From Escherichia coli (GTDB lineage Bacteria > Pseudomonadota > Gammaproteobacteria > Enterobacterales > Enterobacteriaceae), in assembly GCF_030384885.1 (NCBI RefSeq), contig NZ_CP128613.1: a stretch of DNA of 64,000 nucleotides, one strand, 5' to 3'. Of this stretch, positions 53,001-59,000 are shown piece by piece (the first letter of the stretch is position 1; every line of letters begins with the position of its first letter). Position numbers: made by a program.

Positions 53001-56000
53001 TGATGGCGACGGCATGTTAGGGCTGGATCTCGGTGTCTATGGTGCACCAGAAACGTTCCTCATCGACGGCAACGGCATCATTCGCTATCGCCATGCGGGT
53101 GATCTCAATCCCCGCGTCTGGCAAGAAGAGATCAAGCCGCTGTGGGAGAAATACAGTAAGGAGGCCGCACAATGAGGTTTTTATTGGGCGTGCTGATGCT
53201 GATGATCTCCGGCTCAGCGCTGGCGACCATCGACGTGTTGCAGTTTAAAGATGAAGCACAGGAACAACAGTTTCGTCAGCTTACTGAAGAACTGCGCTGC
53301 CCGAAATGCCAGAATAACAGCATTGCTGATTCCAACTCGATGATTGCCACCGACCTGCGCCAGAAAGTGTACGAACTGATGCAGGAAGGTAAAAGCAAGA
53401 AAGAGATTGTCGATTATATGGTGGCGCGCTATGGCAACTTCGTCACTTACGACCCGCCGTTAACGCCGCTGACCGTGCTGCTGTGGGTGCTTCCGGTAGT
53501 GGCTATTGGCATTGGCGGTTGGGTCATTTACGCCCGTTCGCGGCGTCGGGTACGCGTGGTGCCGGAAGCGTTTCCTGAACAAAGCGTGCCGGAAGGTAAG
53601 CGTGCCGGATATGTTGTTTATCTGCCGGGTATTGTGGTGGCGTTAATTGTGGCTGGCGTCAGCTACTACCAGACCGGCAATTATCAGCAGGTGAAAATCT
53701 GGCAGCAGGCCACGGCACAGGCGCCGGCGTTATTGGACAGGGCGCTGGATCCGAAAGCCGATCCGCTCAACGAAGAAGAGATGTCCCGCCTTGCGCTGGG
53801 GATGCGTACTCAACTGCAAAAAAATCCGGGAGATATAGAAGGCTGGATTATGTTGGGACGCGTTGGCATGGCGCTGGGTAACGCCAGTATCGCCACCGAT
53901 GCATACGCCACTGCGTATCGCCTCGATCCGAAGAACAGTGATGCCGCACTCGGATACGCTGAAGCGTTGACTCGTTCATCTGATCCCAACGACAACCGCC
54001 TCGGCGGCGAACTGCTACGCCAGTTGGTGAGAACGGACCATAGCAATATCCGTGTGTTAAGCATGTATGCGTTTAATGCCTTTGAGCAGCAGCGATTTGG
54101 CGAAGCCGTTGCCGCGTGGGAGATGATGTTGAAACTCTTACCTGCCAACGATACTCGCCGTGCGGTGATTGAACGTAGTATCGCGCAGGCGATGCAACAC
54201 TTATCACCACAGGAGAGTAAATAAGAACAAGCCCGATGGTGATGCCATTGGGCCAGACTGATGGCAAAGTGCGCTTTGTTTATGCCAGATGCGGCGTAAA
54301 CGCCTTATTCAGCCTACAAAATCGTGCGAACTCAATACATTGCTCGATCCGCGTAGGCCTGATAAGCGTAGCGCATCAGGCAGTTTTGCGTTTGTCATCA
54401 ATATCAGCCCGAGGGTAAATCCATCGGGCTATTTTTTTATTGTGCCCCACGTTGTTGCAGGAACAGAATGGTGGCCGCCACGCGTGAGCGGACATTGAGT
54501 TTACGCAGCAGATTGCGAATGTGTACTTTTACTGTCTGCTCGGAAATATTCAACACAGAGGCAATCTGTTTATTTGACAGCCCTTGTGCCAGCTCGTGCA
54601 GAACATCCAGCTCGCGCTCCGTCAGCACGCTGAAGGGATCTTCTTCCGCGCCAAACATTTCACGTTCACGTAAGTACTGATTGACGCGTTCGCTAAAGAC
54701 TTTGCTGCCTTTCGCTCCGGCACGAATCGCTTCCAGCAACACTTCCGGGTCGCTGTCTTTCAACAGATAACCGTCTGCGCCTGCGTCTATCAGCGCAAAG
54801 ACATCGCTGGAGGCATCTGATACGGTCAGGATAATAATTTGCGCGGTAACGCCATCCCTGCGCAAGGCATTGAGGGTATCCAGGCCACTCATACCTTTCA
54901 TATTGAGATCCAGCAAGATCACGTCGATATCCAGTCTATTCGCCAGATCGATAGCACTTGCGCCGTCGCCCGCTTCGGCGACCACTTCAAAGCCAGGATC
55001 AAGTTCCAGTAACTGACGAACACCGCGTCGCATAAGTGGATGATCATCCACAATCATCACCTGAAAAGGCGTTGCTTCAGGCATAGTAGTCTCCTGAGGT
55101 TTTATTAGAATCATTATGTTTGAGCGTAGCGTTGGTAACGCTACCAGGCGCGTGAATGTTACCCCATTTTATGTATGGACATGTAGTGAAAACTACAACC
55201 TTGTCTTTTGCTTTGGCATCATTTTCATTATAAAGACGGAATTTTGCATCAACTTCCCATCAAGAAAAACAACTAAAAAATCAATCACAATACATGTGCA
55301 TTTCTTTAAACAGTTTTTAAAAACTGACTCCGGGTATGGCGCTATGGGTATTTTCAGTACCCAATGCTTTTACAGCAATTAATTTCATAGGATGAAAGAT
55401 TAATGCATCACTCTGGTTCTGTTTCTCTTTGTCGTTCCGCAATATCTGTTCTGGTGGCTACAGCGTTATATTCTCCCATAGCATTGGCATCAACTGTTGA
55501 GTATGGAACGACTGTTGATGGTGTTGTCCTGGAAAAAGATATCCAGCTGGTTTATGGGACCGCAAATAATACGAAAATCACTCCCAGCGGAGAACAGCAT
55601 ATAAAAGAATGTGGTGTAAGTAATAATGCTGAAATCAACGGAGGGTATCAGTACATTGAAGCATATGGCTCAGCAGAATACTCAGTATTAAATGATGGTT
55701 ATCAAATTGTTCAATTGGGTGGTGCAGCAAACCAAACTACCCTCAATAATGGTGTGTTACAGGTTTATGGCGCAGCGAATGATCCCACGATTAAAGGCGG
55801 GCGCTTAATCGTTGAAACCGAAGGCATTGCCATCTTCGCCGTTATCGAAAAGGGAGGACTACTGGAGATTAAAGATGGCGGATTGGCATTTGCGGTAGAT
55901 CAAAAAGCAGGCGGTGCAATCAAAACAACCACGCGGGCCATGGAGGTATTCGGAACAAACCGTCTCGGTCAGTTTGATATCAAAGATGGGGTTGCTAACA

Positions 56001-59000
56001 ATATGCTGTTGGAAAACGGCGGAAGTTTGCGGGTTGAAGAGAATGACTTCGCTTATAATACCACTGTGGATAGTGGTGGTTTACTGGAGGTTATGGATGG
56101 CGGGACTGCAACTGGCGTTGACAAAAAAGCAGGCGGAAAATTAATTGTTTCAACGAATGCGCTGGAAGTGAGTGGTACAAACAGTAAAGGCCAATTTAGC
56201 ATAAAAGATGGCGTGTCTAAAAATTATGAACTGGATGATGGTTCCGGGCTAATTGTTATGGAGGGCACTCAGGCAATTGACACTATCCTTGATGAGCATG
56301 CAACCATGCAATCGTTGGGAAGAGATACTGGTACGAGAGTGCAGGCACATGCAGTTTATGATCTTGGTCGGTCAGTGCAGAATGGAAGCATAAAATATTC
56401 CTCAAATGCCATATCTGAAAATATGGTTATCGATAATGGTCGCGCTAATGTCTGGACTGGCACAATGGTTAACGTAACAGTCAGAGGAAATGAGGGCATT
56501 ATTGATGCAATGGCGCTGGAATTAAATTTTTATACACCGGCTACATTTTTAGGTGACGTGGTGGTTTCTGATGGTGCATCTTTAAGAACGCATGGCGCAG
56601 TGGATACCAGTAAAGCAGATGTTTCTATCGAAGAGAGTTTTTGGGCTATTATTGCCGATATCAATAATATAAACCAAAACACCCATCTCAATTTAGCAAA
56701 CCTGGTGATGTCAGACGGAACTGTCGTTATGATGGCTGAGCCAGCAACTCGCTCAACCGTGACGGCAAGTGCGGAAAATTTCACTACGTTGACCACTAAT
56801 ACCCTATCGGGAAACGGCAATTTTTATATGCGTACCGATATGGCTAATCATCAGAGCGATCAGCTCAACGTGACCGGTCAGGCAACAGGTGATTTCAAAA
56901 TATTTGTGACGGACACGGGGGCCAGCCCGGCAGCAGGTGATAGCCTTACACTGGTAACAACGGGCGGCGGTGATGCTGCATTTACCTTGGGCAATGCCGG
57001 AGGCGTTGTTGATATCGGTACGTATGAATATACCTTGCTGGATAATGGCAACCATAGCTGGAGTCTGGCAGAGAATCGCACGCAAATAACTCCTTCAACC
57101 ACTGATGTGTTGAATATGGCGGCAGCACAACCGCTGGTATTTGATGCAGAACTGGATACCGTACGTGAGCGTCTTGGTAGCGTAAAAGGCGTTAATTACG
57201 ATACGGCGATGTGGAGTTCGGCAATTAACACCCGCAACAACGTAACCACTGATGCGGGAGCTGGCTTTGAGCAAACATTGACGGGGCTGACGCTCGGTAT
57301 CGATAGCCGTTTCTCCCGTGAAGAAAGCAGCACAATTCGTGGCTTATTCTTTGGTTACTCTCATTCTGATATTGGTTTTGATCGCGGCGGTAAAGGTAAT
57401 ATCGATAGCTATACTCTGGGTGCTTATGCCGGTTGGGAGCATCAAAACGGTACCTATGTTGACGGGGTGGTGAAAGTTGACCGTTTTGCCAACACCATCC
57501 ATGGCAAGATGAGTAATGGGGCAACAGCGTTTGGCGATTACAATAGTAACGGCGCGGGTGCTCATGTCGAGAGCGGGTTCCGTTGGGGGGAGGGGCTGTG
57601 GAATGTAAGGCCTTATCTGTCCTTTACCGGCTTTACCACTGATGGTCAGGACTATACGTTATCAAATGGTATGCGTGCGGATGTGGGAAATACCCGCATA
57701 TTACGCGCTGAAGCGGGAACGGCGGTAAGCTATCACATGGACCTGCAAAACGGTACTACGCTGGAACCCTGGCTGAAAGCCGCCGTGCGTCAGGAATACG
57801 CCGATTCTAACCAAGTGAAAGTTAATGACGACGGCAAATTTAATAATGACGTGGCTGGAACCCGTGGCGTTTATCAGGCTGGGATAAGGTCATCGTTTAC
57901 CCCGACGTTAAGCGGTCATTTGTCAGTCAGCTATGGCAATGGCGCGGGGGTAGAATCACCGTGGAATACCCAGGCGGGTGTGGTCTGGACGTTCTGATAA
58001 CAGAAAATAAACAGGTCGTAATGTGTCGCGGTCTGTTTATCAAATTAATCGCAGATATAAAAAAACCAACCGCAATAGGTTGGTTTTCTTGGGATTTTTG
58101 GTCGGCACGAGAGGATTTGAACCTCCGACCCCCGACACCCCATGACGGTGCGCTACCAGGCTGCGCTACGTGCCGACTCGTGGCTGCTAATACTACCGTT
58201 TTCCACAACGAATGCAAGTAAGATATTTCGCTAACTGATTTATAATTAATCAGTTAGCGATAAAACGCTTCTCGTCTGTCAGCACCTGCAATAACAAACT
58301 TAACTGTGGTTTTTCATCTTTCACTCTTTCACCACGTAAGTTGTAAGTACGGTATTTACCGTTATTGTTCAGCACCAGCGTCTTTTTCGGGGTGGTAATT
58401 GCCAGCGTATCGTTATCCGCAGCGGTAACCCAGTAATGACGGCGTTGAGGGTTGAACAAATCCTGACCTTGCGAATATTCGCTGGCAGGTGTGCTGACAT
58501 GTAGCAGGCGTTGCATCAGCGTCGTCATCAGATCGGTATGATCAGTCAGCGCATTAATACGCTGCGCCGGTGTGCCGGGCCAGTGAATCACTAATGGTAC
58601 CTGCAGATGACCGTGGGACCAGTCAAAGGTTTCTTCCTCTTCGCTCAGCGGAATACCCCGGCCGGCAGTGATAATCACCACCGTATTGTCCAGTTTGCCA
58701 GAATCACGCAGTGCATTGAGCACGCGGTTGATCTGGTCATCGACATTGCCTGCCGCCCGGCTATATTTCCGTGCAAATGCCTGCTGATTGCTGTCGTCAA
58801 TGTTAGTGCCATTGAAAGAGACCCACGAGAACCAGCGGTTATCTTCTTGTGCGTAGCGGCCCAGCCAGTTGATCCACTGCGTGGCGGTCTGCTCGTCGGA
58901 TTGGGTACGTACGCTCGGCATCGAGAAATCTGACAACAATGCCTGGCGATACAGCGGGCTGGTAAAGCCATCTGACGAGAATAACCCCAGCTGATAGCCT

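Follow-up and report, generated by a model that had tools for sequence, protein, structure and literature searches.

Two described forms of YejO stand closest to the gene examined here, that of E. coli K-12 (b2190), an IS5K pseudogene (PMC11005336), and that of O157:H7 (WP_000554210.1); both represent the same gene, in the same genomic position (narP-yejO-proL-yejM) and with the same domain order. Among other autotransporters, the self-associating Ag43/Cah (PDB 4KH3, 7KOH, 7KO9) has, like YejO, a beta-helix passenger with AIDA-type repeats followed by a barrel. AIDA-I and TibA, glycosylated AIDA-I-type adhesins, have the PF16168 AIDA repeats in common with YejO, and YfaL/EhaC (AIDA-I family) belongs to the same broad family. 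Existing publications or annotations already cover the gene yejO itself, its intact state in strains other than K-12 and B2, its interruption by IS5 in K-12 and the role of proL as a site of integration.

Identity and intactness of the yejO gene

We analysed a stretch of 64,000 nucleotides from E. coli (contig NZ_CP128613.1; hereafter the window). The yejO CDS lies at 55403..57997 on the plus strand as a single unbroken ORF of 864 codons plus stop, with an ATG start and no internal stop codon by ORF call, and encodes a classical (type Va) autotransporter. The first-pass annotation had described an 864-codon ORF with autotransporter features and had named it yejO; both statements hold. E. coli 2013C-4282 matches the DNA at 100%, and there the same coordinates are annotated as yejO (WP_000546506.1). 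In RefSeq the exact protein is called "autotransporter YejO", and P0001, the representative of the 98% cluster, bears the same name; the main YejO protein cluster comprises 16,859 sequences. The gene order ccmH-narP-yejO-proL-yejM is common to K-12-lineage and O157 genomes, and the protein is 91.2% identical both to O157 YejO and to K-12 YejO rebuilt without IS5 and its 4-bp duplication. Position between narP and proL-yejM, together with this high full-length identity to reference YejO, places the protein in the YejO orthologous group. By synteny, annotation and 91% amino acid identity, the gene is thus the ordinary, already annotated yejO of E. coli.

The earlier statement that an IS5 element interrupts the K-12 gene was correct. 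K-12-lineage genomes carry IS5 at about codon 22, and its removal restores an ORF of 863 codons, one fewer than the 864 found here; K-12 and O157 YejO (863 aa) are 96.8% identical to each other. The gene in the window has no IS5, and its uninterrupted ORF agrees with the earlier description of the locus as IS-free. The feature start first proposed, 55115, falls outside the gene and is the first base past the longest narP ORF. An 88-aa ORF at 55116..55382, within the AT-rich spacer, is unannotated and most likely spurious. YfaL/EhaC is encoded in the same window, but of its gene yfaL only a 5' remnant with a frameshift survives there (window 4648-5608), in contrast to the intact yejO. Taken together, an ancestral chromosomal Escherichia yejO, coding for an intact type Va autotransporter that is likely an adhesin, with a rare passenger class and next to an empty proL, very probably accounts for the whole locus.

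Domain architecture and probable role of YejO

The protein sequence shows the features expected of a classical (type Va) autotransporter, namely a predicted signal peptide, a putative beta-helix passenger, a pertactin-like junction, a barrel and a beta-signal. Sequence reading by eye and the hydropathy profile predict an N-terminal Sec-type signal peptide, as the first-pass annotation had supposed, at 55403..55489 (plus strand; aa 1-29, MHHSGSVSLCRSAISVLVATALYSPIALA, followed by ST past the predicted cut). A basic residue occupies position 11, residues 12-22 form a hydrophobic core (Kyte-Doolittle maximum 2.15) and A-L-A stands at -3/-1, with predicted cleavage after ALA. The passenger includes two tandem modules of 74 residues at 55853..56296 (plus strand; aa 151-224 and 225-298), which overlap two strong Pfam AIDA repeats, align with each other at z = 27.5 against shuffles and appear in the DNA as a direct repeat with 222-nt spacing. 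The repetition claimed earlier is hence real, but the module length is 74 rather than about 80 residues and just two clear copies are present, not many. Two natural alleles, P0016 and P0099, appear to lack exactly one such module.

A pertactin-like domain follows at 56696..57070 (plus strand; aa 432-556; PF03212, E 5.6e-45) and corresponds to the C-terminal part of the beta-helix, the junction or autochaperone region. The beta-barrel translocator lies at 57209..57994 (plus strand), with Pfam covering aa 603-842 and TIGR01414 extending to aa 864. Pfam detected two AIDA repeats (PF16168, E 1e-21 to 1e-24), Pertactin and the Autotransporter barrel (PF03797, E 1.1e-44), and TIGR01414 scored 369 bits against a cut-off of 16 (E 2.7e-110). 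The BrkA barrel aligns with residues 583-864. The protein ends in ...AGVVWTF, an aromatic C-terminal beta-signal, so that the barrel ending in VVWTF noted at first is substantiated by domain search.

An AF2 model computed from a 6-sequence alignment was all-beta over passenger residues 30-445, mostly at pLDDT >90. In the same model residues 503-864 reached a pLDDT of about 22, and the barrel call draws on HMM evidence because AF2 failed to model this part. Sequence relatives of YejO in the PDB comprised Ag43, Vag8, an AidA-I family adhesin, TibA, pertactin and the BrkA barrel. Ag43 was the top match by sequence (E 5e-34), and a Foldseek search with the AF2 passenger likewise returned Ag43 passengers as the closest structures (E 1e-21, 25-26% identity); the resemblance is one of sequence and predicted structure. 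YejO nevertheless differs from the named families. It is shorter than Ag43/Cah and scores 127 bits against the Ag43/Cah equivalog NF033177 (cut-off 1200); against AIDA-I (NF033176) it scores 66 bits (cut-off 1200), with far fewer repeats, and against BafA (NF040482) 211 bits (cut-off 700). With AIDA-I and TibA, the latter among its PDB matches, YejO shares the TIGR04415 strand-loop-strand repeat of O-heptosylated passengers, but a heptosyltransferase gene is absent beside yejO.

By homology, YejO is most likely a surface adhesin or aggregation factor. Secreted enzymes also occur among autotransporters with a beta-helix stalk, and the passenger gave weak structural matches to SPATE passengers (E 1e-3 to 1e-5), which could suggest a released enzyme or toxin such as a protease or lipase. 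These matches, however, are at 10-13% identity and reflect the shared beta-helix stalk only. Pfam and NCBIfam found AIDA, Pertactin and barrel domains and no protease or lipase family, and the top matches in both sequence and structure were all adhesin-type beta-helices (Ag43, TibA, AidA-I family, pertactin). Because no catalytic domain was found, we reject the enzyme reading as highly improbable and retain that of a surface adhesin. Our literature search found no functional study of YejO, which also goes unmentioned in a 2022 review of autotransporter function.

The steps by which YejO might reach the surface can be proposed from what is established for type Va autotransporters in general. 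The 29-residue Sec signal peptide would direct the precursor to the periplasm, where BAM, perhaps together with TAM, would insert the C-terminal beta-barrel of about 260 residues, with its aromatic beta-signal, into the outer membrane. The passenger of about 530 residues would then be threaded out and, folding from its pertactin-like C-terminal end, would form a right-handed beta-helix of the Ag43/AIDA-I/TibA type.

The narP-yejO spacer and the proL junction

Since the RefSeq narP start corresponds to window position 55084, the divergent narP-yejO intergenic region comprises 55085..55402 (318 bp), the presumed promoter and regulatory region of yejO. It contains 35.5% G+C, in line with the AT-rich upstream region of about 300 bp described earlier; upstream values of 0.355-0.358 compare with a window mean of 0.516 and fall at the 1.5th percentile among 288-bp windows. 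YfaL/EhaC resembles yejO in this respect, the region upstream of yfaL having the lowest G+C of the window (0.264). A possible Shine-Dalgarno sequence, AGGA, lies at 55390-55393. Scanning the plus strand of the spacer for a sigma-70 consensus gave no site, a result uninformative either way, and the spacer held no NarL/NarP 7-2-7 site, with one isolated heptamer match only. No GATC occurs in 55085-55402; because the upstream GATC cluster of Ag43 is lacking, an Ag43-type Dam/OxyR phase switch is absent in that form.

H-NS-silenced genes for surface proteins have AT-rich promoters, and the yejO spacer shares this property. Its base composition hints weakly that H-NS may silence yejO; the literature search found no paper linking yejO to H-NS binding. 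The 318-bp spacer shared with narP would probably contain a weak or silenced promoter, and therefore yejO might be poorly expressed in the laboratory. Few annotated genes of K-12 have been reported as expressed less often than yejO (PMC10392735), but this evidence is confounded because IS5 there parts the promoter from the gene body.

Downstream, two hairpins lie between yejO and proL at 58007..58093 (RNA fold -28.9 kcal/mol, z = -5.2). The second (58063-58086) resembles a bidirectional intrinsic terminator because an A-run and a U-run flank it, and is predicted to serve both yejO and proL. The tRNA gene placed by the first-pass annotation about 100 bp downstream is indeed there: proL, tRNA-Pro (anticodon GGG), occupies 58099..58175 on the minus strand, opposite to yejO and 101 bp past its stop codon.

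In other strains proL serves as a hot-spot of integration (PMC4924310), and the G+C content of yejO (0.47; passenger 0.43-0.44) is below that of the window (0.516). A gene of such composition abutting such a tRNA could have arrived on an old genomic island integrated at proL instead of being an ancestral core gene. The locus itself, however, has none of the marks of a tRNA-linked island: yejM, yejL and yejK come immediately after proL, integrase and other cargo are absent, and a search for flanking direct repeats, including repeats of the tRNA 3' end, was negative, as the earlier reading had it. Moreover, at least part of yejO is present in 5,421 of 5,426 E. coli genomes, and E. albertii likewise has yejO next to narP at this locus. 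In strains that carry an island, the break falls inside the tRNA 3' end, beyond the yejO terminator, and islands therefore insert beside yejO without including it. We consequently reject an island origin of yejO, to which we assign very little probability, and regard the gene as ancestral. The proL junction is contiguous, i.e. unoccupied, in 4,827 of the 5,426 genomes (89%), and in the present strain proL is likewise an empty attachment site.

Distribution of yejO and divergence of the present allele

An intact yejO is the common state of the gene and no exception, as is true of most non-laboratory E. coli: 4,280 of 5,426 complete genomes (about 79%) keep at least 80% of yejO in one place. According to PMC3426408, citing Wells 2010, every commensal and diarrhoeagenic genome in the comparison carried yejO and the gene was truncated in UPEC; ST131 has been reported to lack it (PMC5654935). 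In E. albertii narP and yejO are arranged alike; its NarP is 97% and its YejO 77% identical, and this ortholog is intact, with 862 aa. This E. albertii gene, at 77%, was also the one confirmed locus in a whole-protein scan of 100,044 species-representative genomes, which used exact 8-residue patterns and evidently missed other Escherichia.

Independent inactivations are frequent: an evenly spaced genome sample contained IS5 insertions, IS1 insertions and deletion alleles of 54-58% coverage. Combined with the AT-rich upstream region, the scan without a consensus promoter and the rare expression of the K-12 gene, this might suggest that the intact ORF is a silent relic, never usefully expressed and heading for the decay seen in K-12 (IS5), IS1 strains and B2/UPEC deletions. 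Against this stand the retention of the near-full-length gene in about 79% of genomes and of the intact 862-aa ortholog in E. albertii, and the pattern of substitution. dN/dS was 0.03-0.24 in every segment relative to both K-12 and O157, which indicates purifying selection on the coding gene; with alleles at dS 0.2-0.55, this selection on the protein has been long-term. We accordingly consider a silent relic unlikely and favour an intact, conserved autotransporter gene.

The sole unusual point of the locus is that its yejO is an uncommon allele, strongly diverged in the passenger, which the first-pass annotation had overlooked. DNA identity to the common allele is about 92% across yejO as compared with about 98% in the flanks. 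The divergence is greatest in a hypervariable passenger segment at 56291..56800 (plus strand; aa 297-466), where these 170 residues, with a one-residue indel, are 75% identical to the common allele and only 75-77% identical to K-12/O157 YejO, whereas identity reaches 97-99% in the pertactin-like and barrel parts. dS relative to the common allele was 0.2-0.25 for the whole gene and 0.55 in aa 297-466, compared with 0.03-0.07 between K-12 and O157. The version of aa 297-466 found here occurs in 18 of 5,426 genomes and is one of at least three discrete classes in E. coli, all of which are 36-43% identical to the E. albertii version, with none closer. Positive selection on the segment was considered and rejected, its dN/dS of 0.24 showing no non-synonymous excess, as an average that leaves room for site-specific selection. 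In the export scheme outlined above, aa 297-466 would be the exposed mid-helix; this part is fast-evolving, with discrete allele classes of which the present one is rare, and is joined to a nearly invariant translocator.

A rare, anciently diverged class of this kind would be compatible with a polymorphism of an exposed binding or antigenic surface, maintained over a long time under balancing or diversifying selection, or with introgression from an unsampled Escherichia lineage; we put this forward tentatively, as a possibility with the lesser share of our confidence. For the most part the locus matters little, its practical value being a correct check of annotation. YejO is nonetheless widespread in E. 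coli, and functional work should start from an intact natural allele like the present one, not from the K-12 pseudogene. If either account of the allele classes were true, YejO would be expressed and "seen" in nature, with alleles differing in ligand or antigenic specificity. Should the classes reflect selection, YejO would, speculatively, join the autotransporters whose variation tracks interaction with the host and its immune system.

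The yejO locus and its surroundings

The first-pass annotation had described a single autotransporter ORF of 864 codons, and the ORF list bore this out: yejO occupies positions 55403..57997 on the plus strand, initiates with ATG, encodes 864 aa and contains no internal stops. RefSeq places a CDS at identical coordinates (yejO, "autotransporter YejO", WP_000546506.1), with ccmH and narP on its 5' side, narP being on the opposite strand, and with tRNA-Pro(GGG) (58099..58175, also on the opposite strand) followed by yejM, yejL and yejK. The left coordinate initially assigned, 55115, did not hold: it is merely the first base past the longest possible narP ORF. 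Given that the RefSeq narP start codon ends at 55084, the true narP-yejO spacer is 55085-55402 (318 bp). An AGGA motif lies 10 nt 5' of the yejO ATG. Computation showed the narP-adjacent position to be ancestral, as it is common to E. coli and E. albertii (NarP 97%, YejO 77% identical). In the window, yejO is in its usual state, and the gene has been annotated and described before; the initial observation is confirmed and its interpretation supported.

Positions 54400-58300 are a 100% match to the chromosome of E. coli 2013C-4282 (NZ_CP027579.1), isolated from human stool in the USA. That record, otherwise identical, is one base shorter in ccmA and flags it as a frameshifted pseudogene, whereas ccmA in the window (47938-48561) is an intact 207-aa ORF; the frameshift probably reflects misassembly or a homopolymer error there, or the window derives from a corrected version of the record. 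In the window and in K-12-lineage genomes, the ccmH-narP spacer (54225-54436) measures 212 bp, against 34 bp in O157 and in a further two strains. Its additional sequence includes GCCAGATGCGGCGTAAACGCCTTATTCAGCCTAC and GTAGGCCTGATAAGCGTAGCGCATCAGGC, which resemble the REP consensus and are putative REP/BIME palindromic units.

The AT-richness noted upstream of yejO was evident, the spacer having a G+C content of 35.5% versus 51.6% for the window (1.5th percentile of 288-bp windows) and several A/T tracts. Neither GATC nor NarL/NarP 7-2-7 sites were found in the spacer, and a consensus scan of its plus strand returned no sigma-70 site. The sequence is compatible with a promoter that may be weak or xenogeneically silenced. 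A literature search found no paper linking yejO to H-NS binding. The low expression of yejO in K-12 (PMC10392735) cannot tell silencing from polarity, since IS5 parts the gene body from its promoter in that strain. The spacer also contains an 88-codon ORF (55116-55382, plus strand) that has no RefSeq annotation and is most likely spurious. The lowest G+C of the window (0.264) lies at 4101-4511, upstream of a yfaL/ehaC remnant; other low-GC stretches are 32641-33191 (0.30, rcsD-ompC spacer) and 41601-41801 (0.35, eco 3' end and eco-napF spacer).

Domain architecture and passenger repeats

Residues 1-29 (MHHSGSVSLCRSAISVLVATALYSPIALA) show the three regions of a predicted Sec signal peptide, with A-L-A at -3/-1, in agreement with the first reading; this call is based on sequence reading and hydropathy. 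Pfam assigned two strong AIDA repeats (aa 184-245, E = 3e-24; aa 257-314, E = 7e-21), two weak ones, a Pertactin domain (aa 432-556, E = 6e-45) and an Autotransporter beta-domain (aa 603-842, E = 1e-44), and the NCBIfam barrel model TIGR01414 covered aa 457-864 (E = 3e-110). The barrel ending in ...VVWTF was thereby recovered; aromatic C-terminal signals of this type are typical of outer-membrane barrels. By sequence, the nearest solved relatives are Ag43, Bordetella Vag8, an AidA-I family adhesin, TibA, pertactin and the BrkA barrel. Assignment of YejO as Ag43, AIDA-I or BafA was ruled out, as its scores fell far under the curated equivalog cut-offs and it is therefore not a member of these families. 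With a shallow alignment, AlphaFold2 produced a regular all-beta solenoid for residues 30-445, mostly at pLDDT >90, and failed over residues 503-864. The best PDB matches of the modelled passenger were Ag43 passengers (E = 1e-21). Computation shows a full type Va autotransporter domain set, with an Ag43-like beta-helix passenger and a conserved translocator. By analogy with established type Va autotransporters, YejO would be exported by Sec, its barrel inserted in a BAM-dependent manner, and its passenger displayed at the surface after vectorial C-to-N folding nucleated at the pertactin-like junction. Homology suggests a role as an adhesin or in aggregation.

The proposed passenger repetition is real, its size and number being different from the ~80-residue modules first described: there are two tandem 74-residue modules (aa 151-224 and 225-298), whose alignment outscores shuffles by 27.5 SD. 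By the same shuffle-based scores, no further pair of 74-residue blocks in YejO exceeded z = 4.1. At the DNA level, the repeat appears as a 62-nt direct repeat with a spacing of 222 nt. In the public variants P0016 and P0099, "...AVDQKAGG" of the first module joins "KLIVSTNALEV" of the second directly, and the length of P0016 (790 aa) equals 864 - 74; both read as having lost exactly one module, and the repeat thus seems to generate natural variation in copy number. Of the variants P0005 and P0018, one (935 aa) has a duplication of ~71 residues within its pertactin-like region and the other a 41-residue internal deletion. Taken together, these length variants suggest that repeat-mediated rearrangement is common in yejO.

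Another AIDA-I family autotransporter gene, yfaL/ehaC, which in K-12 is ~3.75 kb long, is represented in the nrdA-ubiG gap (3954-5863) only by a frameshifted 5' remnant (CDS 4648-5608). Other E. coli match just the first ~1,530-1,650 bases, at 85-90% identity. The window strain thus has an intact yejO and a second autotransporter that is largely deleted.

Integrity of yejO and the proL site among genomes

The interruption of yejO by IS5 first described for K-12 proved correct. A K-12-lineage genome (L002) contains a 23-codon 5' fragment, the IS5 transposase gene and then the remainder of yejO, which carries the flag "missing N-terminus". IS5 entered at the equivalent of 55466-55469, and once it and one copy of a 4-bp duplication are removed, an intact ORF of 863 codons is regained. 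PMC11677980 gives the orientation of this IS5 copy as that of yejO. Among 5,426 complete E. coli genomes, 5,421 had a yejO match and 4,280 (79%) had at least 80% of the gene in one place. Of 29 chromosomes sampled at even spacing, most carried a contiguous yejO; insertions of IS5 (n = 2, K-12 derivatives) and IS1 (n = 2) were seen, as were deletion alleles in approximately seven (54-58% query coverage, annotated as partial or as containing internal stops). The main YejO protein cluster at 90% identity comprises 16,859 member sequences. An intact yejO is not unusual. The passage of PMC3426408 citing Wells et al. 2010 describes YejO as present in every commensal and diarrhoeagenic genome compared and truncated in every UPEC genome, and ST131 is described as devoid of yejO (PMC5654935).

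As first noted, neither an integrase nor att-like direct repeats were found at the yejO-proL locus of the window. The yejO-3'/proL/yejM junction was unbroken in 4,827 of the 5,426 genomes (89%); in the remaining ~11%, homology stops at ~58113-58117, within the 3' end of the tRNA-Pro gene, and the foreign DNA beyond includes a PerC-family regulator and phage-like ORFs (genomes L003, ~4700-6595, and L005, ~4700-6592). Together with a gtrIC-carrying prophage remnant in the tRNA-Pro-yejO interval of Shigella flexneri 1c (PMC4924310), these breaks identify proL as a known attachment site and confirm it as an active integration site in E. coli, unoccupied in the window strain. E. albertii NBRC 107761 (L008, 1535-7295) keeps the narP-yejO adjacency, with no tRNA in the 2.5 kb downstream and a FinO/ProQ-like ORF (6759-7295) in its stead, suggesting an inserted element at the E. 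albertii proL site.

Between the yejO stop and proL (58007-58093), RNA folding predicted a pair of strong hairpins (-28.9 kcal/mol, z = -5.2). With an A-run and a U-run on its flanks, the second resembles a bidirectional terminator shared by yejO and proL. A separate 16-nt near-perfect palindrome (58228-58260) overlaps the yejM stop codon.

A rare, diverged passenger allele

The first-pass annotation, sound in the elements confirmed here, had overlooked the rarity and divergence of the allele. Whole-gene identity to the window yejO was at least 99% in two genomes, 95-99% in 17 more and ~92% in the other ~5,400. For the neighbouring DNA, narP shares 97-100% identity with K-12; across the 3.75 kb downstream (yejM to rplY), identity to each of the genomes is 95-99% (closest non-clonal, 98.2-98.6%). 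Divergence peaks at 56300-56800, with 72-89% identity to K-12 in 100-bp windows. Used alone as query, the variable segment (aa 297-466; 56291..56800) matched 18 E. coli genomes (0.33%) at 98% identity or more, with no match between 98% and 82.4%. Compared with K-12 and O157, amino acid identity is 75-77% in this segment, 88-92% in the N-terminal passenger and 97-99% in the pertactin-like region, linker and barrel. For most of the gene, the window yejO has a dS of 0.2-0.25, rising to 0.55 in the variable segment, versus 0.03-0.07 between K-12 and O157, and dN/dS is 0.03-0.24 throughout, indicating purifying selection on both allele lineages.

In the variable segment, P0017 represents a third class, with ~70-74% identity to the other two, and the E. 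albertii ortholog reaches only 36-43% identity, yet 93-94% in the C-terminal part. One genome (L004) is a mosaic, with a common-type N-terminal passenger and a rare-type middle. A scan of 100,044 species-representative genomes with the whole protein, whose exact 8-residue patterns evidently missed other Escherichia, returned E. albertii alone and identified no donor lineage. Carriers of the rare segment are also the nearest relatives of the window strain in flanking DNA, and the rare allele is thus at least partly lineage-associated. As a rare diverged passenger allele of YejO, already filed under the same name in public databases, it is of modest interest.
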